Of a stretch of 64,000 bases of DNA, positions 4,909-38,490 are shown one piece after another. A program made the position numbers and the translations under genes. How positions within the stretch are numbered: position 1 is the stretch's first letter; the number at the start of each line of letters is the position of its first letter. A model generated the notes under the pieces. That model did no database searches. It saw only the letters and a program-made list of their open reading frames with translations, and was not told the DNA's origin. The stretch lies in contig LBWK01000001.1 in the NCBI GenBank assembly GCA_000993565.1, forward strand, positions 84,869-148,868, written 5' to 3'. Source of the stretch: a candidate division WS6 bacterium GW2011_GWF2_39_15 (lineage in GTDB: Bacteria; Patescibacteriota; Dojkabacteria; SC72).

Positions 4909-7575
4909 CTATGCAACTGGCGTTGTTGGATCGGTATTTGTACTAATGACAGGTTCAGCAGGCGTTTGTGTGGGTACTTTGCTAGTAGCCTGTTGATTAA
5001 GTTTAATCGCCTCCTGTGTCGGCACATCGAAATTCCCTATAACCGGAGGAGGTTTCTTCCTATCTCTTGATCGCTTTACTATTAGGGTGGTCATTATGAG
5101 CAGGATTGATATTACAAGTCCGGCAACTGCAGTTAGTGCGATTAGTATAATATTGCCCCTTACATTAATACCCATCTCCTCAAGACGCTGTTCAATTGAT
5201 TGCATGTTGAATAACGGTGTTTGATCCTCACCGTCCTTTATTTTCTTTTCTGATATCTTAATTAATGGAGACATAATGCTTTGTGAGACAGGGTAAAGTG
5301 AGACAACCTTTTTGAAATCTACCAAAGCCAATTTATAGTATGCTTTTGAAAAATTATTAACTCCGCTGCGAATAAGTTTAGCAATTTTCCCTTCAGTTAT
5401 TTGAACAGAGTTTTCCTTTAATAATCTTGTAACTTCCTCTACAGAAATACCTGCATTAAAGTCCGCTGATTCATTTTCTGAAAGCTTGTAGGTCGTTACT
5501 CCGACAACATCACCATCACTATTTAATATTGGGCCTCCGCTGTTACCATAAGAAATAGAGGCGTCTATCTGTAAAAGTTTGAAAGTGCCGTCTATACTTG
5601 GTTTAACGGCGCTAATTATTCCATTTGTAACAGTTGCAATACTAGATGCTGAAGCGGCAAATACACTTTCGTTATTTACTGATCCAGGAAATCCTAAAAC
5701 ATATATCGGCATTCCGGAGGTCAGAACTTCATGCGATGTGAGCTTCAAGAATGGATAATCCTTGTTCTGAGTGTCAACTTTAATAAGAGCGAGATCTGGT
5801 ATTGATGGTGTAATCGGCTTATTATTTGCCTCGTTGTACAAACGCTTGTAGTGTGAATCTACCTGTCCTTTCACTAAAGTTGTTGCAAGCTGGTCTTGGG
5901 TATTTATAAGGTTATAAGTATTTAGATCAACTGAGAACGGTTTCTCCTGTTCTACAAAGTTAGTATACGAAGGTTCAAGTGTAATAACTCCTTGGTTTTC
6001 AAGCTCTATAAAAGAGGACATTAGAAAGAGAAGTGCATCAGAGTTGGAGTAGATATTTAGGTCAGTTGAGTAGTTTGAGAGGAGATACTGCTGAATATCC
6101 GTCGCGAAATCTCTCCAGAAAACATTGGTACTGCCAGTTAGTAGTAAGGAAGAAATGAGCATATCAACTGGATTAGGAGTTGCAACATGCCCATTGGTTA
6201 CAATATAACCTTGACTACTGACAAAAAAGCCAGATCCTGTACTCGCCTGGCATATATCATATGTTTTGCCAGGAGTAGTTTTAAGACCGCTATCACTGGA
6301 TACTTTTACTAGGACACATGCTTTATTGTATATATGTACAACTGATGGTTTCCCAATTAAAGCGGATCGATCAATTTCCAGAGACGAAGTTCCCAGTATA
6401 TTACTAGTCAGATTAAATGAACTCTCACTCTGTATATTTGTACTTTCTTCATACTTTACGGTTGTAAGAAGTTTATCGATGGCTTTTTCACCGTTGCTTC
6501 CAGTTACTGGCATGGTTGCCTTTATCGTAATAATATATTTATTATCCTTGCTCGTAGTTGTATAGATTTTGATCTTTGTCGCTGAACCTGTAAATGTATA
6601 AGAATATTCACTATAAAGGTAGGATGTACCGCCGATGTCCCTCTTTATTTTATCTGAGGAGTATTTTAGACCTTTATCCCTGTAAAAATTCTTATCAAAT
6701 GAAGTGTAAATATCATGACTTGTTTGTTCTGTTTCGTTTTCCCCTTTTGTAGAAGATGTTATTGCGAGGGTAGTTGTACTGTATTTAAAATCATCCAATT
6801 TCTCCTGATTCTCGCTTCTAAAGTTTAAAAACGCCGAATACTCAGTACTTGATGAAAGGATCCACATATCTCTATCATATTTTAATGAGGTACCACCTTT
6901 GGGGATTTCAACCTTTATATCGGTTGCGAGGTCCTTTGGTTCATATTCAGCCTTTGTTAGTATATTAGCTACCTCTGATATGTGATTCGTGACACTATAA
7001 CCATCGGGATATACAATGGTAGCTTTCAAAAACTTATCATTTACCTTTCTATAAACAATTTGTGTATTAAAAAGGGCTTTTGAGTTATCCAGGAAAGATT
7101 CTTTAACATAGGAAAATCTCATCCCTTTTAATTTCTCTATCTCGCTTTCTTCTTCTTTCTTTACATTTTCATAAAGTGCTTTGAGAGCATTTTCTTCTGA
7201 TTGAGGTGAAGTCTCTGTTGATGTAAGAGCTATTGTTGTATAGATATCCAGGTTATATGCTCCAATTTTGCTTACATACACAGAGCTGGAGGAGTCATTT
7301 AAAAGATATTTCGTAGAATCATACGTGAACAAAGTATTCAGAGAGGGGGAATAAAAAGTGGAGGTCTTGTTATGGGTACCCTTGTATACAAGCTGATTTG
7401 TCACCTCTTGTGCAAGTTGCGGGTCAAGGTTTGCTAGGACGATTTTCCCTTCCTTGCCCTTGCCTTGAATATCATCATAGAGACCCTTACCAATTATTAT
7501 AAAGAGGATTAATGAGTTTAAAATACTTAATACCACTCCCGTAAGGATAAGAGATTTTACATTTAACTCTTTCAT
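4909..7575 (-). CDS. Membrane-anchored trypsin-like (HtrA/S1-family) serine protease domain protein
   Basis: 888 aa. It has an N-terminal signal-anchor (LILTGVVLSILNSLILFIIIG). The central region contains GFFVSSQGYIVTNGHVA (His box) and ...GNSGGPILNSDGDVVGV (the GxSGGP Ser box). A C-terminal TM helix (ILIALTAVAGLVISILLIMTTLIV) is followed by a Pro-rich tail. Confidence 0.55.
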   Translation of the reverse strand: MKELNVKSLILTGVVLSILNSLILFIIIGKGLYDDIQGKGKEGKIVLANLDPQLAQEVTNQLVYKGTHNKTSTFYSPSLNTLFTYDSTKYLLNDSSSSVYVSKIGAYNLDIYTTIALTSTETSPQSEENALKALYENVKKEEESEIEKLKGMRFSYVKESFLDNSKALFNTQIVYRKVNDKFLKATIVYPDGYSVTNHISEVANILTKAEYEPKDLATDIKVEIPKGGTSLKYDRDMWILSSSTEYSAFLNFRSENQEKLDDFKYSTTTLAITSSTKGENETEQTSHDIYTSFDKNFYRDKGLKYSSDKIKRDIGGTSYLYSEYSYTFTGSATKIKIYTTTSKDNKYIITIKATMPVTGSNGEKAIDKLLTTVKYEESTNIQSESSFNLTSNILGTSSLEIDRSALIGKPSVVHIYNKACVLVKVSSDSGLKTTPGKTYDICQASTGSGFFVSSQGYIVTNGHVATPNPVDMLISSLLLTGSTNVFWRDFATDIQQYLLSNYSTDLNIYSNSDALLFLMSSFIELENQGVITLEPSYTNFVEQEKPFSVDLNTYNLINTQDQLATTLVKGQVDSHYKRLYNEANNKPITPSIPDLALIKVDTQNKDYPFLKLTSHEVLTSGMPIYVLGFPGSVNNESVFAASASSIATVTNGIISAVKPSIDGTFKLLQIDASISYGNSGGPILNSDGDVVGVTTYKLSENESADFNAGISVEEVTRLLKENSVQITEGKIAKLIRSGVNNFSKAYYKLALVDFKKVVSLYPVSQSIMSPLIKISEKKIKDGEDQTPLFNMQSIEQRLEEMGINVRGNIILIALTAVAGLVISILLIMTTLIVKRSRDRKKPPPVIGNFDVPTQEAIKLNQQATSKVPTQTPAEPVISTNTDPTTPVA

Positions 7576-7643
7576 CTGAGAATGGGCAAATTTAAACTAT
7601 AAAATAGTACTACTTTAGATTCTAATGATCAAATGAGAACAAA

Positions 7644-22668: not shown

Positions 22669-23355
22669 ATGCCTCAGGTAATTCCGGGAAACCAGAGTAA
22701 TACAACTCAGACACCTGTGGTAGCACCTGCTGCATCACCGATACCTTCTCAACAGGTTCCCCCTTCACAAAGTCCATGGAATGATATGGGAGGCTGGGGA
22801 TGGAATCCTGGATCGGATAATCCTAACCCAAATGAAAAGCGCTTAACTCCGCAAGAGCGGGTTGAAATGATTGAGAAATTATACCAAGAGGTATTAGGCA
22901 GAAAACCTGACACAAGAGATATAAATTACTATAAATACTCAACTCTATCTGAAGAAGAGATTAAAAAACAACTTCTCACTGGCAAAGAGCACAAGCAACT
23001 TTTAGATGATGGTCGTGACTATAAGAAAATGAAAGATAGGGCTATGCAGGCAGAAACACGTGTAAAAATGCTCGAATCACAAATAACCGATCAAGTTCAA
23101 GAGTTCAAACATTTATCCGATCTCTTAACAGAAAAGAACAAATATATTCAACAGTTGCGCGAAAAGCTAAATGACCCGTATAATCTATCAAGCTCATCTG
23201 TTAAGCCATTACCTATTCCACAGTCTCCTGATCTTGTTAAGCCTCAGCATGAAAGCAAGGAGGTCTTTTCTATTCCTACATCCTCTTCAGAAAAGCCGAT
23301 CAGTGAGACTAAGAAGAAGCTATTTAATTTAATTAAAAACTTTTTACCAGATTAA
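22669..23355 (+). CDS. DUF4214-domain protein with Pro/Gln-rich N-terminus and coiled-coil C-terminus
   Basis: 228 aa. IEKLYQEVLGRKPDTRDINYY...LSEEEI matches the DUF4214 signature (lYxxvLgRepDxxGlxyW...S.EF). The N-terminal 50 aa are low-complexity P/Q/S/N. The C-terminal half is heptad-rich. Confidence 0.45.
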   Translation: MPQVIPGNQSNTTQTPVVAPAASPIPSQQVPPSQSPWNDMGGWGWNPGSDNPNPNEKRLTPQERVEMIEKLYQEVLGRKPDTRDINYYKYSTLSEEEIKKQLLTGKEHKQLLDDGRDYKKMKDRAMQAETRVKMLESQITDQVQEFKHLSDLLTEKNKYIQQLREKLNDPYNLSSSSVKPLPIPQSPDLVKPQHESKEVFSIPTSSSEKPISETKKKLFNLIKNFLPD

Positions 23356-24993: not shown

Positions 24994-25406
24994 CCTAGTA
25001 ACCTTGATATTAATTTATAATACGCCTGGTATCCCTTTTTAACATCTTCACGACTAACCTCAATGTCGTCGTGTACAATACTATTTCTTAGCTTGTGATA
25101 ATACCATATTTCCTCGTAAAGATCTCTTTTAACTTGCTTTCTTATTTTCTTTAAATTTTCACCGCAGGTTAAATTGTTACGATTTCTAATCTGCAACACC
25201 TTACTTAATATGCTATCTAATCTAACAATACTATCACGATTAGCAGAACTTAAATCAAGTTCAATATTTTCCTTAATACTTTTCATCTGTTTATAGATCT
25301 CATTTTTCCTCCTGGAAGATACTTTGTTTGAGCTTTTAAAAACAAATAAGAAAAAGACCAGAATTAAGAATAGGACCAGCCCTGTTATGTATAAGGAGTC
25401 TTGCAT
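24990..25406 (-). CDS. Membrane-anchored HEPN-like (DUF4145-like) protein
   Basis: 138 aa with an N-terminal TM (ITGLVLFLILVFFLFVF). The C-terminal helical domain carries HKLRNSIVHDD, i.e. R-x4-H as in HEPN/DUF4145 (lRNxxaH). Assignment is from the motif only. Confidence 0.3.
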   Translation of the reverse strand: MQDSLYITGLVLFLILVFFLFVFKSSNKVSSRRKNEIYKQMKSIKENIELDLSSANRDSIVRLDSILSKVLQIRNRNNLTCGENLKKIRKQVKRDLYEEIWYYHKLRNSIVHDDIEVSREDVKKGYQAYYKLISRLLG

Positions 25407-27265
25407 TATTTCCTTTTTCTAAATAAATATTTAAATATCATGTATATTATAGTGAATAAGAGCAGAGAAATTAAGAGATTTATGAAGGTATTACCAGTTG
25501 GATTACTAGCAGTCGATTTTAAATTTGCAGCTTTTTTGAATACGGTTCCCTCAAGATCGGCAATTGTTACAACCATTTTATCAGCCTTAGTCAGGCTTGT
25601 GGCAGAAAAGACCAGAGGGATTATCGTCTCCTGATTTGGTAAGACAGTATGTGCACTCCAAAGATTCAAGGGAGAAATGCCTGCTTTATCAACTATTATA
25701 TTCGCTTTCATTATCTGATATATCTTATTACTGCGATTTTTAACAATCAGATCGCCTTTAACTCTATTTCCATCTTGTCCCTTAACTTTAAACTCACTGG
25801 TAATCTCTTCAAAAGGAGCAATCATTGCATCTGCGATCTCAATGTTAAACTCATCCGGAGAAAATACAGACATTTGAGGTTTAATTGATGATTCGTTCCT
25901 GGAAACGAGGGCGATATGGTCTAAGCTAGTTGAAATATAGCGTTTGGGGAAATAGTCTTGTAAGGCAGGGTCTAAAATTATCCATTTACCACTATCCACA
26001 TCCCAGTACTCCCCCCAGCTATGAAAAAAACCTTTCTCTTGATATGAGTTTAGGGGTGAAATATAACCTAGTATCATACGAGTTGGGACTCCCATATATC
26101 TCAGGAGGGCGATTAAGAGATCAGTATAATCATCAGGGGAAGCACCTTCCGAAATTGTTCTCTCGATATTGGAAACACCATGCCTAATGTCTACTTTTAC
26201 GTCCTGTGATGATCCTGAAGAAGGGGTAAGCCTCTCAAGAACATAATCATATATTGAGGAGATAAATAAACTGCGGACATTTGACTCACCTTCAAAGCTC
26301 TCAGGTAATCCTTTCTCCCGTAGATAAAGCTTAACTCTCTTCAGTTCAGTATCCGTTCCAAATGACCAGTAGTTATCTATTTGCAGTAGTTTGGAAAAGT
26401 CTTTTGGTGACCTGTGACTTGCTTCATCAAAATAGATATAACCGCGTACCTTGATTGTGATGCTTTCACCTTGCTTAAGGAGATAGGAGATATTCAGATT
26501 ATCATTACTATCCAGTTCAATATCAAATGGGGAAGGAGTAACTTCAGAGTATAAAACATGCTGACCGTTACCTTCTCTGGGCAAGGTAATTCTATATACA
26601 CTTGTCTGTTCCCCGGAGTTACTTAATTCTTTAGAGATACTAAGGTTATAACCAAAGTCTTTACCAATAACCAGTGAGAGAGCAGGATTAGAAAGCAAGG
26701 ATTTTTCCTTTACTTGCACGACCTTAAAGCCCTTCGCTGTAGTACTGGGTTCAAACTCAACAGATGACCAGACTATATTTCCCCAGTCGGAGGGGTATTC
26801 TACCTTATTAACACCCTGGTCAAAACTTAATATTGGGGGGATTAGAAGCACATAGTTCTCACCGTCAACCTTAACATAATCATCAAGCACTATTGTGACA
26901 TTAATTACCAAGGGACTACCTTTCTGTGCAATCAAATTCGGTAGGCTGAGATAAACTTTACTACCTGACGATTGTTTAGTACTGCTATATTTATAATCCT
27001 TCCCCTCAATGTTAACTTTAAGGCTATCATATGAACTAAATGGGATTGTAAATGTAAAATTTGTAATGACTGAAGGGATATTACTGGATTGGGCTAAGGT
27101 GAATGCATAGTTGATACTTAAATCGCCATCTTTGTTTACGTGGTAAATGGAGGAATTTGTTCTTGTAAGCTCAGCTGCAATTAAAGGCGTTGAAGTTGAA
27201 AGAAGTATTAAAAATCCACTAAATACTAATAGAGTTCTCTTTAAATAACCAATCAAACTTGTCAT
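25406..27265 (-). CDS. Transglutaminase-like domain membrane protein (catalytic Cys position occupied by Ser)
   Basis: 619 aa with an N-terminal signal. The TGase-like core EGASPDDYTDLLIALLRYMGVPTRMILGY ... FFHSWGEYWDVDSGKWIILDP aligns to GxCxxxA..L.RA.GIPAR.V.GY...HaW.E.y...GW...DP, with Ser at the Cys position and His/Asp conserved. A C-terminal TM follows (LLISLLLFTIIYMIF) with an RKRK tail. Confidence 0.55.
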   Translation of the reverse strand: MTSLIGYLKRTLLVFSGFLILLSTSTPLIAAELTRTNSSIYHVNKDGDLSINYAFTLAQSSNIPSVITNFTFTIPFSSYDSLKVNIEGKDYKYSSTKQSSGSKVYLSLPNLIAQKGSPLVINVTIVLDDYVKVDGENYVLLIPPILSFDQGVNKVEYPSDWGNIVWSSVEFEPSTTAKGFKVVQVKEKSLLSNPALSLVIGKDFGYNLSISKELSNSGEQTSVYRITLPREGNGQHVLYSEVTPSPFDIELDSNDNLNISYLLKQGESITIKVRGYIYFDEASHRSPKDFSKLLQIDNYWSFGTDTELKRVKLYLREKGLPESFEGESNVRSLFISSIYDYVLERLTPSSGSSQDVKVDIRHGVSNIERTISEGASPDDYTDLLIALLRYMGVPTRMILGYISPLNSYQEKGFFHSWGEYWDVDSGKWIILDPALQDYFPKRYISTSLDHIALVSRNESSIKPQMSVFSPDEFNIEIADAMIAPFEEITSEFKVKGQDGNRVKGDLIVKNRSNKIYQIMKANIIVDKAGISPLNLWSAHTVLPNQETIIPLVFSATSLTKADKMVVTIADLEGTVFKKAANLKSTASNPTGNTFINLLISLLLFTIIYMIFKYLFRKRK

Positions 27266-33928: not shown

Positions 33929-35017
33929 TTAATTAAGAGTGCTTTTTGCGGGCTCAACCTTTTCAATAATATACTTAAGGAACGGATCACTCTCCTGATC
34001 AGCAATAAACATATAAACAACTGTATCTCTTGGATTGCCTACTATATAAGCTTCAGTCTGTACATTACCGCTAAAAAGCTTCCCGGAAAGAGCCTCCTGG
34101 CCTGCTACAACAGTGACTGTAGTATTAGAGACCTGCCATTTGGTTTTATGTGCCTTGTTGAATTTCTTTAAGCCTTTTTCTAAAAAAGCATCATAACTAA
34201 TTGCACCCATATAGCCTAAAGGCTCAATTGTAACTGACTTGTTAGAGCCTAGCTTTTTAAAGCTCACTTTAATTAATTCACCTATGTCGGTAGCTCCATA
34301 CGTAGCGATATAGTCACTTGAGAAACTCAGCTTCCAAGGGAAATCAGGACGCAAGTCTTGCATATCACTCTCAGAGAGTAGAAGTTGAAGCTCAACCTCC
34401 TTTTTGACTTCGTCAGACAGCCCCGTTGATGCCTGCTCCTGTGTTATTGACTGATACCAAATATCGTTGAGTTTAGAATAGATTCTGACTCCAATTGTGC
34501 CTTTTACCCAATACTCTCCGAACTTTTGTTCCTCTGATTCCAACGGAACGGAAAGGACCTCCTTCCATCCCGCTTTAGGCAGGTGTTCCTTATAATAGTT
34601 ATTGACATCTTCTATTGTGTGTCCAGGCTCAAGTCTGTAAACTGCCTGGCCAGTACTTAAGAACCTCTTCACATCATCGTTATTCAGTTTATCCTTGAAA
34701 ATGAAAACTGAGTTCGGGTACTCCGGTATTTCAGCAAATCCGACAACATTAGTGAGACTCACATCCGTTCCATCAAGAATATTTCTTCTTAAGTTCGAAA
34801 CGTAATTAATTAAAAGAAAAAGCACAATAACAACAAGGGCTCCAAAAGTGAGAATTAAGAATATCTTTATAAAGGATCTACCAAACATTTTTTTGTATAA
34901 CCTTCCTCTGGTCACCTCTGTATATTTAGTCTTTCTTCTTTTGAAAAAGCTCAAAACCTTCCTTTGTAGAGATTTTCTTTCCTTTATTTTTCTTTTATCA
35001 AGCTCCTTGAATTTCAT
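33929..35017 (-). CDS. Hypothetical single-pass membrane protein with extracytoplasmic domain
   Basis: 362 aa. A basic N-terminus (KRKIKERKSLQRK...) precedes a TM helix (IKIFLILTFGALVVIVLFLLINYV) and a 290-aa soluble domain. I see no recognisable motif. Confidence 0.4.
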   Translation of the reverse strand: MKFKELDKRKIKERKSLQRKVLSFFKRRKTKYTEVTRGRLYKKMFGRSFIKIFLILTFGALVVIVLFLLINYVSNLRRNILDGTDVSLTNVVGFAEIPEYPNSVFIFKDKLNNDDVKRFLSTGQAVYRLEPGHTIEDVNNYYKEHLPKAGWKEVLSVPLESEEQKFGEYWVKGTIGVRIYSKLNDIWYQSITQEQASTGLSDEVKKEVELQLLLSESDMQDLRPDFPWKLSFSSDYIATYGATDIGELIKVSFKKLGSNKSVTIEPLGYMGAISYDAFLEKGLKKFNKAHKTKWQVSNTTVTVVAGQEALSGKLFSGNVQTEAYIVGNPRDTVVYMFIADQESDPFLKYIIEKVEPAKSTLN

Positions 35018-35092: not shown

Positions 35093-35166
35093 TGCGGGAT
35101 CGTCTAATGGTAGGACACCGGCCTTTGAAGCCGTGAATCCTGGTTCGAGTCCAGGTCCCGCAACCA
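35093..35166 (+). tRNA. tRNA-Gln (anticodon TTG), U1-A72, CCA encoded
   Basis: Sequence tgcggga-tc-gtctaatggtagga-c-a-ccggc-ctTTGaa-gccgt-gaat-cctggttcgagtccagg-tcccgca-a-cca. The U1:A72 pair matches E. coli tRNA-Gln. Confidence 0.7.
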
Positions 35167-35214: not shown

Positions 35215-38200
35215 ATGAAATCCAAGAAGAAACTTGTTTCAAGAAACTCCAAATTTATATTCACTTTAATATTTATTATCCTAATTGTTGCCGGATTTTT
35301 TTACACACGAGACCTCTTTACGTCAAAAGCCCGTAATGTAAAAATCTCCAATATAACTTCAACCTCAGTGACATTAACCTGGGTCACCACTAAGAAAAAT
35401 GCCGGTATAGTTCTCGTAAAAGAAGGCTCTAATATTGGAAATTCATGGAAGGACTTTTTTACAGCACGAAGATACTACGATGACAGGGATATCTATATTA
35501 CTGCTACAAAAACAGTGATAAATGCTGAGCGAAGATATACACATTATGTTACGATCAACCATCTGACACCTGAAAAAAAATACTATTTCAGACTTTCTAA
35601 TGGCCTTCACATCTGGGATATCAAAGACGTTAATCAGAAGAAAGAGTGGTATGGAATAGATAACATATCATCTTTTCAATTTACAACCCCCGCAATTTCC
35701 TCCTCGGGACTGACACTTCCCCAGACAGTTTATGGCAATTTGGAAGATCAGAAAGCCCTTGCATATTCAGATGGGATTATCTTTGGACAGATTTACAGTG
35801 TTAACGATGAGGGAGAGGTTGATATTCAAAACAAATCCAGAATAATTTCTACTTTTGTCAATGACGATGGGGGATGGGTTCTTGACTACTCATTAGAAAA
35901 AAATGGATTCGAAAATAACAAGGATCAAATATATCTTTATGCTCACATTGAAAATAAAAGTGATATTCCGGGACAATTCGAAAATATCACAAGCGGAAGC
36001 AGTATCGTAGACCTTTTTGACTATGACCGCACACAATCATTAAGGCCTAGTTTTCTTCTTTCGCTCTCAAAACCTGTTTCGGCGGCAGGTGACCCAGTTT
36101 GTTGTGCCTTAATTATCAGCGGTAGAAAGAACGTTCTTTTTGATTATGAGGAGGCCGGGGCATGTACAACATGTGGCGAATGCTACAAGGTGGGAACCCA
36201 GGAATCAGGCGGAACACTATTAGAAGTAGGCAGTATTAAACCAAGAGGAGACAATGATGCGGAAAGGAGAAACAACTGTGAGAGTATGGATAGACTTGCA
36301 AGTAAAGGCTTACCCGCTGGTTCTGAAGACCAAAGCTCCAGTAGTAGTAATAATAACAGTAATAGCTCAGAAAATAGTTTCAGCGGTGCTTGTAATACGA
36401 GCTTAAAGGATGAGGATTTTACAGTATCAAACATAGATAAATCGCAATTTGTTGACTACGCAAAAAGACTTGGAGGAGGTGGAACACAAGCTGACAAATG
36501 TTATAACTACGTTGTATGTAAATCAAAGCAGTATGGAATAAATCCTGCACTTGGTCTGAGTATCTGGGTTCATGAATCTGCCGCAAGTGACTACCAAAGA
36601 TTTCCAAACGTTGAGGATATGGGTATCCACTGTTATGGCGGAGCAGGGAACTATCCTGCTTACCCATGTAATCAAACTCCTAAAGAGAATCTAAAAGCAC
36701 AGACCGAAATGTTTGGCCTTTTACCTCATACACAATGCCAATCCGGTGGTAGTTTTAATATCACTAAATGGGCAACAGGATTTTGGACAGGGAATTGTTC
36801 TGAGACTTCATATGGTGAGAAATATGTGGATGATCTTGAGTTGCAATGGAGTGTCTACGGAAAAGGTGCTTTTCCAAATTGGCTGAAGAATGCAGGAACT
36901 GCAAAACCTAACCTACCGTGTGATCAAGTAGCAAGTTCAACTCCTTCAACCCCCTCAACCCCGACAACCCCTTCTACACCTTCAACCCCTTCTACACCTT
37001 CAACACCAAGTACACCGACGACACCTAGCCAAAATACCGGAGAAAAATGTTGTGCCTTTATCCTTAAAGGGGAGAATGTCTATCGAAGTGAAAAAACTAC
37101 ATCCAATAGCTGTGCTGATGCTTTCGCAAAGGGTAGTTCCTATACTAGTGGGAATATATCGGGAACTATAGACTATGGAGTGGAAATAGGCAGGAAAGAG
37201 GTTCAAGTAATTAAACCCGCATGTTGTGCAATGATAGTTACAGGGAAAGATAATGTATATTTCGATTATGTAAATGACAAAATCTGCAACACTTGCGGAG
37301 ACTGCTTCCCCGTCGGGAGGACAGTAGCGGGAGGGAGAGTTACTGCAGTCGGAAGAGAGGTTCTGACGGGTGCTAACGACAACAGAACCACCTGTGAGTC
37401 TATAAAAAGGCCCGCCTCTTCAGGTGTTCCAGCCGATACTCCAGTCGAACCAGTTTTTTCAAACAAATGTAGCGGAACACAATATGATATAGAATGTAAA
37501 AACTATTTGCCTGTACCTAAAGGGGAAAATGCAATATCAGCTCCATATGGAGAAAATACCAGATGCCTAGATCCAAATGTGAAGCCCATAGAAGACGGTA
37601 TTACTAATATAATCATCAGCAAGGAAAATCCAAAAGTATTTACAAAACTACTCTCAACAGTACAGGCGGAAGAAAGCTACGTTAAATCAGTATCAGGGTC
37701 AGTTGTAACTTTCACAAAAGACGGAATATACAATATTGAGATTGGTGACCTGAAAGTATCAAATGTACCAATTAACTCAGATGGGAAATATAGATTCTAC
37801 CAAGAAATAAATGAGGAACGAGGATATCAAAGTTCTAAAGACAAAGCTCTAACGTTCAAAAATAAAAATGAGATAAAAGCTGTAAAGGTTGAAGACGGCT
37901 TTAGAGTTGAACTCAATGCTGGTTATAACTTCATTACAATCAACTATGAACGTCCTCCGATGTCTATTATAACTACGCCTGCAAATCCGACACAGATAAC
38001 CGCAGCTTCTGTATTAAATATTGGAAATATTGATGAAATCAAAGTAACATACCTGAGCACTTATGCAGATGGCAAGTGGGCAAATGGTATAAGGCCCCGT
38101 GATGATAAAAAGCCCGGGTTACTTGGGAATGACTTTGCTCTTCTCCCGGGACAAGGTTATATGATTATTTCAAACTCAGACCTGAAGGGCGGAATGGCCC

Positions 38201-38490
38201 TGATACTGCCAGGCAAAATTACTTCATCAAAAGTTTCAGTTGAAGTGAAAACCGGGTGGAACTTTGTTGGTTTAACAGGAAAAATCCAGCCACCTTCTTC
38301 TCTCAAATTTTTGGAGAAACTAATGAAGGAACATGGTTTAGCAAAAGTGAATATTACTCAGTGGGATTCAAGCAAGGGACTATTTGAGAGTGTTCAATAT
38401 GATGGAGAGATAGTATACGGAGACGATTACAATTTGAATAATGCTTCAGGGTACTTCTTGTATACGAATAAAGCTTTCACCCTTAAATAG
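35215..38490 (+). CDS. Large multidomain cell-surface protein (FN3-like, Cys-rich repeat modules, SLT-like domain, Pro/Thr/Ser linker, beta-rich C-terminal region)
   Basis: 1091 aa with an N-terminal TM anchor. The FN3 / purple-acid-phosphatase-N-like stretch is ISNITSTSVTLTWVTT...YYFRLS. Cys-rich module copies start at CCALIISGRKNVLFDYEEAGACTTCGECYKVG...NNCESMDRLASKGLPAG, CCAFILKGENVY... and CCAMIVTGKDNVYFDYVNDKICNTCGDCFPVG...TTCESIKRPASSGVPAD. The SLT-like block is YGINPALGLSIWVHESAASDY. The linker is STPSTPSTPTTPSTPSTPSTPSTPSTPTTPS. Confidence 0.6.
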   Translation: MKSKKKLVSRNSKFIFTLIFIILIVAGFFYTRDLFTSKARNVKISNITSTSVTLTWVTTKKNAGIVLVKEGSNIGNSWKDFFTARRYYDDRDIYITATKTVINAERRYTHYVTINHLTPEKKYYFRLSNGLHIWDIKDVNQKKEWYGIDNISSFQFTTPAISSSGLTLPQTVYGNLEDQKALAYSDGIIFGQIYSVNDEGEVDIQNKSRIISTFVNDDGGWVLDYSLEKNGFENNKDQIYLYAHIENKSDIPGQFENITSGSSIVDLFDYDRTQSLRPSFLLSLSKPVSAAGDPVCCALIISGRKNVLFDYEEAGACTTCGECYKVGTQESGGTLLEVGSIKPRGDNDAERRNNCESMDRLASKGLPAGSEDQSSSSSNNNSNSSENSFSGACNTSLKDEDFTVSNIDKSQFVDYAKRLGGGGTQADKCYNYVVCKSKQYGINPALGLSIWVHESAASDYQRFPNVEDMGIHCYGGAGNYPAYPCNQTPKENLKAQTEMFGLLPHTQCQSGGSFNITKWATGFWTGNCSETSYGEKYVDDLELQWSVYGKGAFPNWLKNAGTAKPNLPCDQVASSTPSTPSTPTTPSTPSTPSTPSTPSTPTTPSQNTGEKCCAFILKGENVYRSEKTTSNSCADAFAKGSSYTSGNISGTIDYGVEIGRKEVQVIKPACCAMIVTGKDNVYFDYVNDKICNTCGDCFPVGRTVAGGRVTAVGREVLTGANDNRTTCESIKRPASSGVPADTPVEPVFSNKCSGTQYDIECKNYLPVPKGENAISAPYGENTRCLDPNVKPIEDGITNIIISKENPKVFTKLLSTVQAEESYVKSVSGSVVTFTKDGIYNIEIGDLKVSNVPINSDGKYRFYQEINEERGYQSSKDKALTFKNKNEIKAVKVEDGFRVELNAGYNFITINYERPPMSIITTPANPTQITAASVLNIGNIDEIKVTYLSTYADGKWANGIRPRDDKKPGLLGNDFALLPGQGYMIISNSDLKGGMALILPGKITSSKVSVEVKTGWNFVGLTGKIQPPSSLKFLEKLMKEHGLAKVNITQWDSSKGLFESVQYDGEIVYGDDYNLNNASGYFLYTNKAFTLK
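36937..37026 (+). repeat. Imperfect 9-bp tandem repeat (TCA/TCT-ACM-CCT units) encoding the (S/T)TP(S/T) linker
   Basis: Sequence tcaactcct tcaaccccc tcaaccccg acaacccct tctacacct tcaacccct tctacacct tcaacacca agtacaccg acgacacct. These are 10 nonamer units in frame. Confidence 0.7.

Follow-up and report, generated by a model that had tools for sequence, protein, structure and literature searches.

A candidate extracytoplasmic peptidoglycan glycosidase with a lysozyme-like fold and cysteine-rich modules in a Dojkabacteria genome

A single gene, here called gene X, was analyzed in a 64,000-nucleotide stretch of DNA (the window) from the candidate division WS6 bacterium GW2011_GWF2_39_15 of the Dojkabacteria (contig LBWK01000001.1, positions 84,869 to 148,868 of the forward strand; assembly GCA_000993565.1). 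We consider it rather probable that the product of gene X is a peptidoglycan glycosidase which acts outside the cytoplasm, probably from a membrane tether, and whose catalytic domain is flanked by cysteine-rich (Cys) modules that would bind or position the glycan. The layout is classical for modular muralytic proteins and overturns no concept; what is new is an uncatalogued lysozyme-fold family specific to the Candidate Phyla Radiation (CPR) together with a Cys-stapled domain. An earlier note, made from the sequence alone, had described the open reading frame (ORF) as a surface protein with a novel Cys-rich repeat module and an embedded lysozyme-like domain; this observation largely holds, apart from errors in the number of Cys and in the spacing of the motif. 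The limits which it gave for the ORF, from ATG to stop, agree exactly with the ORF listing. In the following, retrieved proteins and genome loci carry P and L numbers. The gene and its catalytic domain are placed as follows.

35215..38490 (stop codon included), + strand: whole gene X, coding for a 1091-aa putative surface protein (ORF listing, orthologues, synteny)
36379..36930, + strand: lysozyme-fold catalytic domain, residues 389-572 (fold, invariant residues)

The family of the catalytic domain was collected exhaustively with HMMER by running a profile that joined module 1 and the central domain against 1.84 billion cluster representatives. The search gave 339 proteins at E<=1e-3, nearly all of which match the central domain only. 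The residues C429, W451, E454, S458, D468, G470, Q496, C508 and C528 are invariant in 117 members, and around Glu454 (codon 36574-36576) the invariant motif reads W-x-H-E-S-x-A-S-N-Y; the codon of Asp468 is 36616-36618. Structure comparison of the predicted domain gave an alpha+beta lysozyme fold similar to enzymes of glycoside hydrolase (GH) types 22, 23, 24 and 73, where the best match is a GH73 glucosaminidase and most of the top structural neighbours are peptidoglycan enzymes. Glu454 is residue 69 of the model and stands at the end of a model helix (59-70) which is followed by a hairpin region.

The central domain falls outside all Pfam and NCBIfam models. When 46 members were scanned at E<=1, the Glucosaminidase/GH73 family (PF01832) was the sole family matched by more than one member, and even these matches (two of the 46, best E 0.017) lie below threshold and do not include the domain of the window. 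The block YGINPALGLSIWVHESAAS, present at residues 440-458, had been called SLT-like; the SLT family (PF01464) gave no match at E<=1 for the window protein or for any of the 46 members. A profile search of PDB sequences returned a goose-type lysozyme as its sole match, at a non-significant E of 0.32, in which HES454-455 is aligned on the catalytic ES, DMGIH on FGLMQ and FWTG on AYNTG. The motif triad of GH23/SLT enzymes is ES … GLMQ … AYNxG, and the window domain has ES at 454-455 with DMGIH and FWTG at the other positions, a likeness of position only. As judged from the model, the domain belongs to the lysozyme/SLT-type fold in a very divergent form, so the SLT-like label was right for the fold but not for membership of the SLT Pfam family, the nearest family being GH73. 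The catalytic domain represents a branch of the lysozyme-like superfamily that is not yet catalogued; its closest families are GH73 and GH23, and it is confined to CPR bacteria of the Microgenomates group.

The two nearest families differ from this branch in several points. The GH73 endo-beta-N-acetylglucosaminidases (PF01832) include the C. difficile endolysin Ecd09610 (8yxk), S. pneumoniae LytB (7pj3), FlgJ and E. faecalis AtlA; the catalytic domain is only ~7-11% identical to these, its Pfam score is far below threshold, and its family is CPR-restricted with a different signature (WxHESxASNY … VEDxGIH … Q) and with four conserved Cys, eight in the Dojkabacteria proteins. The GH23 group holds the lytic transglycosylases Slt70, MltE, MltF, MltC and MltD and the goose-type lysozymes; in contrast to these, the catalytic domain has no SLT Pfam match and does not keep GLMQ and AYNxG as such, and the invariant Asp468 would suggest a two-carboxylate hydrolase and not a single-Glu transglycosylase.

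The wider family supplies further evidence on the substrate. Alongside the catalytic domain, 58 full-length relatives were found to carry the Pfam domains Peptidase_M23 (10), Peptidase_C39_2 (6), CHAP (2), VanY (1) and FN3/Pur_ac_phosph_N (8), and all of these partners except FN3 are murein peptidases; P0007, for example, has a coiled-coil N-terminus, transmembrane segments, the catalytic domain and M23. From the fold, the invariant acidic residues, the fusion partners and the genomic context, we infer that this CPR-restricted branch of the lysozyme superfamily acts on peptidoglycan.

Two paralogues were observed in loci of type IV secretion systems (T4SS). One is a 1131-aa protein with Peptidase_C39_2 (L026:1871-5266, +) directly downstream of a VirB4/TraG P-loop ATPase, and the other an 808-aa protein (L019:2066-4492, +) directly downstream of two T4SS_pilin genes. 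Both are probably the VirB1-equivalent wall hydrolase of Microgenomates-group CPR. Their setting agrees with the published report of 'peptidase and lysozyme homologs downstream of virB4' in CPR (PMC12102498), and VirB1 analogues such as TrsG and CD419 are wall hydrolases of Gram-positive conjugation/T4SS (PMC12102498). The ~1,000-aa paralogues with M23 or C39/CHAP-like peptidases resemble the bifunctional T4SS wall hydrolases which join a glycosidase to CHAP or NlpC-P60. The window protein differs from those enzymes: it is without a peptidase domain, lies neither in nor beside a T4SS cluster (only the L026 and L019 paralogues do) and has instead the FN3-like domain, the Cys modules and a surface domain at its C-terminus.

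When 185,579 species genomes were scanned for the motif, 121 sites appeared, of which 116 were confirmed; nearly all fall in Dojkabacteria, Shapirobacteria, Woesebacteria, Amesbacteria and other metagenome-assembled genomes (MAGs) of Microgenomates/Patescibacteria. Some loci (L021, L022, L043, L044, L046 and others) carry MAG titles such as 'uncultured Gammaproteobacteria', 'uncultured Candidatus Saccharibacteria' and 'Candidatus Methanoperedens sp.', which are probably automatic mislabels or the result of bin contamination. A viral origin of the catalytic domain was also considered and rejected, as no confirmed match was found in IMG/VR and the PHROG matches of the window protein are noise.

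The second component of the protein is the Cys module, which is present in two complete copies and one partial copy, the number that had been claimed for it.

36094..36318, + strand: Cys module copy 1, residues 294-368, with Cys 296, 297, 317, 320, 323 and 355 (identity with copy 3, AlphaFold2 model)
37042..37206, + strand: Cys module copy 2, degenerate, residues 610-664, with Cys 612, 613 and 633 only (profile score)
37216..37440, + strand: Cys module copy 3, residues 668-742, with Cys 670, 671, 691, 694, 697 and 727 (identity with copy 1)

Copies 1 and 3 are 47% identical over 75 aa with a pairwise E of 4e-24, and the repeat is therefore not due to chance. Copy 2 was undetected by BLAST and has a profile score of 19 bits. 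The copy-2 segments of the window protein and its orthologues (n=7) score 14-24 bits against a profile of 13 full copies, above the maximum of 13.0 bits (99th percentile 6.3) among 2,084 scored shuffled copy-2 segments. The pair CC612-613 and C633 are invariant in the orthologues, and the equivalent of copy 2 is complete, with four Cys, in P0005, P0006 and P0008. A nested insertion, with copy 3 placed inside the middle copy and C752 as the fourth Cys, was tried because P0006, which is without copy 3 (L008), has a complete middle copy with four Cys; it was rejected, as the post-segment scores no better than a shuffled one.

An iterated profile over the retrieved proteins found 31 module copies in 15 proteins, all with the catalytic domain, and by genome the module is present in 18 of 80 loci, and in each of these one ORF holds both it and the catalytic domain. 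Two architectures were seen: proteins of ~1,090 aa with three modules in 5 species, and proteins of ~720 aa with one module directly after the catalytic domain at 13 loci. The spacing between module and catalytic domain is ~15-25 residues, on either side in the differing architectures, and stays within ~20-25 residues in several of them. Two Dojkabacteria-type MAGs encode the one-module proteins (FN3, lysozyme-fold domain, Cys module) in pairs of tandem genes.

L064:3305-5497 and 5504-7627: tandem pair
L073:3305-5491 and 5498-7588: tandem pair

Four ~720-aa proteins (P0041, P0059, P0126 and P0148) also have a conserved 'YEG[VI]CC' after the module, which may begin a further Cys unit.

The conserved core of the module is CC…C…CE over ~60 aa. 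Eight invariant Cys had been counted earlier; there are six in each full copy, and four are conserved across the 25 complete copies of the 30 that were aligned. Six Cys are present in 11 of the aligned copies and exactly the four core Cys in 13, and the copies with three (5 of 30) are the middle copy of close orthologues. C317 and C323 are both present or both absent in 29 of the 30 and are absent from 18. Every conserved block named in the literal signature of the earlier note is present, but two of its spacers were miscounted and neither full copy matches it as written. The module would hold two core disulfides, joining the CC pair with C320 and C355, and an optional C317-C323 bond. Disulfides are preferred over a metal cluster because of the concordance of C317 and C323 and the extracytoplasmic location.

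AlphaFold2 modelled copy 1 at a mean confidence (pLDDT) of 90.5 with the order beta-beta-(short helix)-beta-alpha. The module had been proposed to match no named domain, and this is what was found: there is no Pfam or NCBIfam match in the whole protein or in any of the 30 copies, no PDB sequence match and no PDB fold neighbour, and none of LysM, SH3b, PG_binding, SPOR, CW_binding and Cpl-7 is matched by sequence or PDB fold search. On the predicted model, it is a small Cys-stapled alpha/beta domain of ~60-75 aa with a confident fold and no known relative. A protein search with the module alignment returned none, the orthologues included, which is a limit of the word index and not a true negative.

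The remaining parts of the protein are listed below.

35251..35307, + strand: N-terminal hydrophobic segment, signal-anchor or signal peptide, residues ~13-31 (hydropathy)
35326..35604, + strand: FN3-like domain, residues 38-130 (Pfam)
35605..36081, + strand: uncharacterised region, residues 131-289 (34-50% identity among orthologues)
36934..37032, + strand: (S/T)TP low-complexity linker, residues 574-606 (regular-expression match at 575-604)
37441..37614, + strand: short conserved 3-Cys segment, residues 743-800, with Cys 752, 761 and 784 (orthologue alignment)
37615..38487, + strand: C-terminal uncharacterised region, residues 801-1091 (partial homology to P0161)

Residues ~13-31 are the sole 19-residue Kyte-Doolittle window above 1.6 in the protein and are preceded by a Lys/Arg-rich stretch. 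With this single N-terminal hydrophobic segment, and with conserved Cys in the catalytic domain and the modules, it is plausible that the product is extracytoplasmic beyond that point and exposed at the surface, as had been suggested. The FN3-like domain lies before the modules, also as described, and was barely recognised: Pur_ac_phosph_N (PF16656) scores 30.8 bits (E 4.3e-7) against a cut-off of 30, and fn3 (PF00041) scores 20.3 bits, under its cut-off of 25. The same domain is present in 6 of 7 module-bearing relatives scanned, with PF16656 scores of up to 44-45 bits. Residues 131-289 have no family match in Pfam or NCBIfam. At the DNA level the linker, confirmed at residues 575-604, corresponds to a 9-nt unit repeated in tandem 7.7 times (36936-37004); the orthologues have G/S/N-rich linkers of other lengths in place of (S/T)TP. 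The segment 743-800 matches no family.

The last module is followed by ~350 aa, in accordance with the earlier note. Residues 897-1087 of this part are homologous to residues 90-253 of P0161 (hhalign probability 95.8%, E 7e-9), a secreted protein in which the homologous domain is unannotated and lies between FN3 and a type IX secretion system (T9SS) sorting tail. The C-terminal region has no Pfam or PDB match, and Pfam and NCBIfam scans found no recognised adhesin domain in the whole protein; residues 897-1087 thus appear, from this homology, to be another uncharacterised surface-protein domain and not a recognised adhesin. A protein search with the C-terminal alignment missed even the known orthologues, again by the word-index limit, and is not a true negative.

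Orthologues were searched in 5.8 billion clustered proteins, where 6 only were found (33-56% identity) along with 1 distant match. Those bearing names are Candidatus Dojkabacteria. The alignment of the 6 shows that each of the three module copies is kept, as are the central block and the C-terminal region; the expectation that the repeats are conserved in orthologues is thereby borne out. Conservation is highest in the catalytic domain, with 55-74% identity vs 33-61% in the rest of the protein. P0005 has a ~60-aa extra Cys-containing insert (residues ~684-745) between the middle copy and copy 3, and is without a segment equivalent to 743-800.

In the window, gene X is preceded by a tRNA-Gln at 35093-35166 and stands in the interval from uvrC to uvrB, close to dnaE and mutL. 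Gene X (+) and uvrB (-) are convergent and share 8 nt at their 3' ends (38483-38490). This overlap recurs in L001 (8 nt) and L004 (4 nt). The order dnaE-uvrC-(~350-aa hypothetical)-X-uvrB-…-mutL is identical in the genomes of P0002 (56% identity) and P0005 (33%), and each locus has one copy of gene X. From this conserved order it follows that gene X is old, chromosomal and vertically inherited, and not part of an island or of an operon of related function; a mobile-element or operon setting was ruled out by the same neighbours and the kept synteny.

These results may be drawn together in a proposed mechanism. The N-terminal hydrophobic anchor would hold ~1,060 residues outside the Dojkabacteria cell, with Glu454, at the modelled C-terminal end of its helix, as the predicted general acid. 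The likely second carboxylate is the invariant Asp468, which the beta-hairpin after that helix would carry; hydrolysis would therefore be favoured over lytic transglycosylation. The three modules lie at most ~20-40 residues away from the catalytic domain, with module 1 before it and copies 2 and 3 after it, past the STP linker, and by analogy with the wall-binding repeats of autolysins and endolysins they may bind or position the glycan substrate as accessory domains. The FN3-like domain, the STP stalk and the C-terminal domain may supply reach and possibly ligand specificity. We infer catalytic activity from the invariant Glu and Asp and the surrounding motif in 117 members, which argue for catalysis; peptidoglycan as substrate, the pairing of the disulfides and a binding role for the modules are likewise putative. 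The repeats and their conservation, the fold, the invariant residues, the domain partners, the taxonomic range and the synteny, on the other hand, are direct results of the analysis.

Several observations weigh against this proposal. Sequence identity with characterised glycosidases amounts to ~10%, and none of the curated family cut-offs is reached. The number of Cys in copy 2 is odd (3), and so is that in segment 743-800 (also 3). That module and catalytic domain always occur together was seen only among matches seeded with the catalytic domain; a module-seeded scan of metagenome contigs gave 118 pattern matches, 0 of which were confirmed by tblastn. No thiol-disulfide oxidoreductase was found in the 10 small window ORFs scanned, a result that is uninformative for a 64-kb window.

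Among the rival explanations that we weighed, none is favoured. The foremost is a special case of the peptidoglycan glycosidase reading in which the wall of a host is fixed as the target: the non-catalytic domains would bind the host envelope and the lysozyme-fold domain would digest the host wall at the episymbiotic contact, with nutrient access as the gain. We regard this as possible but less likely than not. CPR bacteria are episymbionts or predators, and their secreted peptidoglycan hydrolases have been proposed to break down the host wall (PMC8080830). In the genome of P0005, gene X has 33% identity vs 46-74% for the neighbouring housekeeping genes, and its non-catalytic domains evolve faster; L064 and L073 carry the one-module paralogues in tandem duplicate, a pattern common among host-interaction genes; and the STP stalk would provide a long extracellular reach. 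Against it stand the absence of a recognised adhesin domain in the Pfam and NCBIfam scans, the apparent tether to the producer's own membrane, and the DNA-repair and replication neighbours, strict synteny and single copy per locus, which fit a housekeeping autolysin. We also know of no host for Dojkabacteria. Remodelling of the cell's own wall is as compatible with the data as host attack, because the protein appears to be tethered to its own cell and its gene stands among housekeeping genes. The fast evolution of the non-catalytic domains and the duplication of the paralogues speak rather for host interaction; the strictly kept synteny with housekeeping genes, the single copy and the apparent tether to the producer speak rather for an autolysin.

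A stronger form of the host-directed idea, speculative and rather unlikely in our judgement, would make the Cys-stapled module a new glycan- or envelope-binding class from Dojkabacteria which targets a CPR-only lysozyme, with the three-module protein as a 'grappling lysin' that breaches the host wall at the episymbiotic interface. If this were true, the rapid divergence of the module would encode host specificity, and the protein would offer a direct way to study, at the molecular level, how a CPR lineage without cultured members opens up its host.

It is also conceivable, and in our opinion unlikely, that the substrate is a glycan other than peptidoglycan (a chitin-like polymer, capsule or extracellular polysaccharide) or that the domain is a dead glycan-binding one, so that the protein processes polysaccharide or is a purely adhesive surface protein. 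Against this, the Glu, the Asp and the surrounding motif are invariant in the 117 members, every fused partner of the paralogues is a murein peptidase, the two paralogues examined stand in T4SS clusters downstream of VirB4/TraG-type ATPase or pilin genes, and the best-scoring and most of the top structural neighbours are peptidoglycan enzymes.

The modules could instead be intramolecular regulators, like a pro-domain or an inhibitor-like lid, which keep the glycosidase inactive until release or a trigger. Their place immediately beside the catalytic domain, ~15-25 residues away on one side or the other by architecture, and their occurrence only with that domain among the matches seeded with it would suit such a role, but a copy number of 1-3 and placement on either side suit binding repeats better than they suit a fitted inhibitor, and the PDB fold searches showed no likeness to known lysozyme inhibitors; we hold this to be decidedly unlikely.

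Very improbable, finally, is that the modules bind metal (Zn or Fe-S), as had also been suggested, or sense redox instead of being stapled by disulfides: four conserved Cys could ligate Zn and C-x2-C-x2-C gave weak matches to Fer4_10 (Pfam, E 0.16) and ferredoxin III (NCBIfam, E 0.15), but these matches are noise (Fer4_10 12.3 bits vs a cut-off of 25.5), two of the three CxxCxxC Cys are gained and lost as a pair like a disulfide, the fourth Cys-Pro of the 4Fe-4S ferredoxin motif (CxxCxxCxxxCP) is missing, and the modules are extracytoplasmic, beside a catalytic domain with its own conserved and apparently paired Cys.

As a putative peptidoglycan glycosidase, the product of gene X may be compared with the modular Gram-positive autolysins and endolysins (LysM, SH3b, choline-binding, Cpl-7, SPOR), which share its plan of a muralytic core, 1-3 repeated small modules and low-complexity linkers; the window module differs from their wall-binding repeats in being Cys-stapled, which is unusual, and in having no sequence or fold match. 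To our knowledge, it is largely unknown how the ultrasmall CPR/Patescibacteria attach to host walls and take up resources through them, and most of their surface proteins are unannotated; we also know of no cultured member of the Dojkabacteria lineage. The catalytic-domain profile could annotate hundreds of 'hypothetical' proteins (339 cluster representatives) and will be useful for CPR surface and T4SS proteins, the Cys module is a clear target for structural and binding studies, and the product of gene X is a concrete, expressible candidate enzyme for work on wall specificity.

Some other genes of the window were recorded along with gene X. The hypothetical protein of 362 aa at 33929-35017 (-) has an N-terminal hydrophobic stretch and no Pfam match, and it stays between uvrC and gene X in the three genomes examined (3 of 3), with 46-58% identity. 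A 618-aa protein with a transglutaminase-like core domain (25406-27265, -) and a 228-aa protein with weak DUF4214/ANG-1-like matches (22669-23355, +) may both be envelope or surface proteins.

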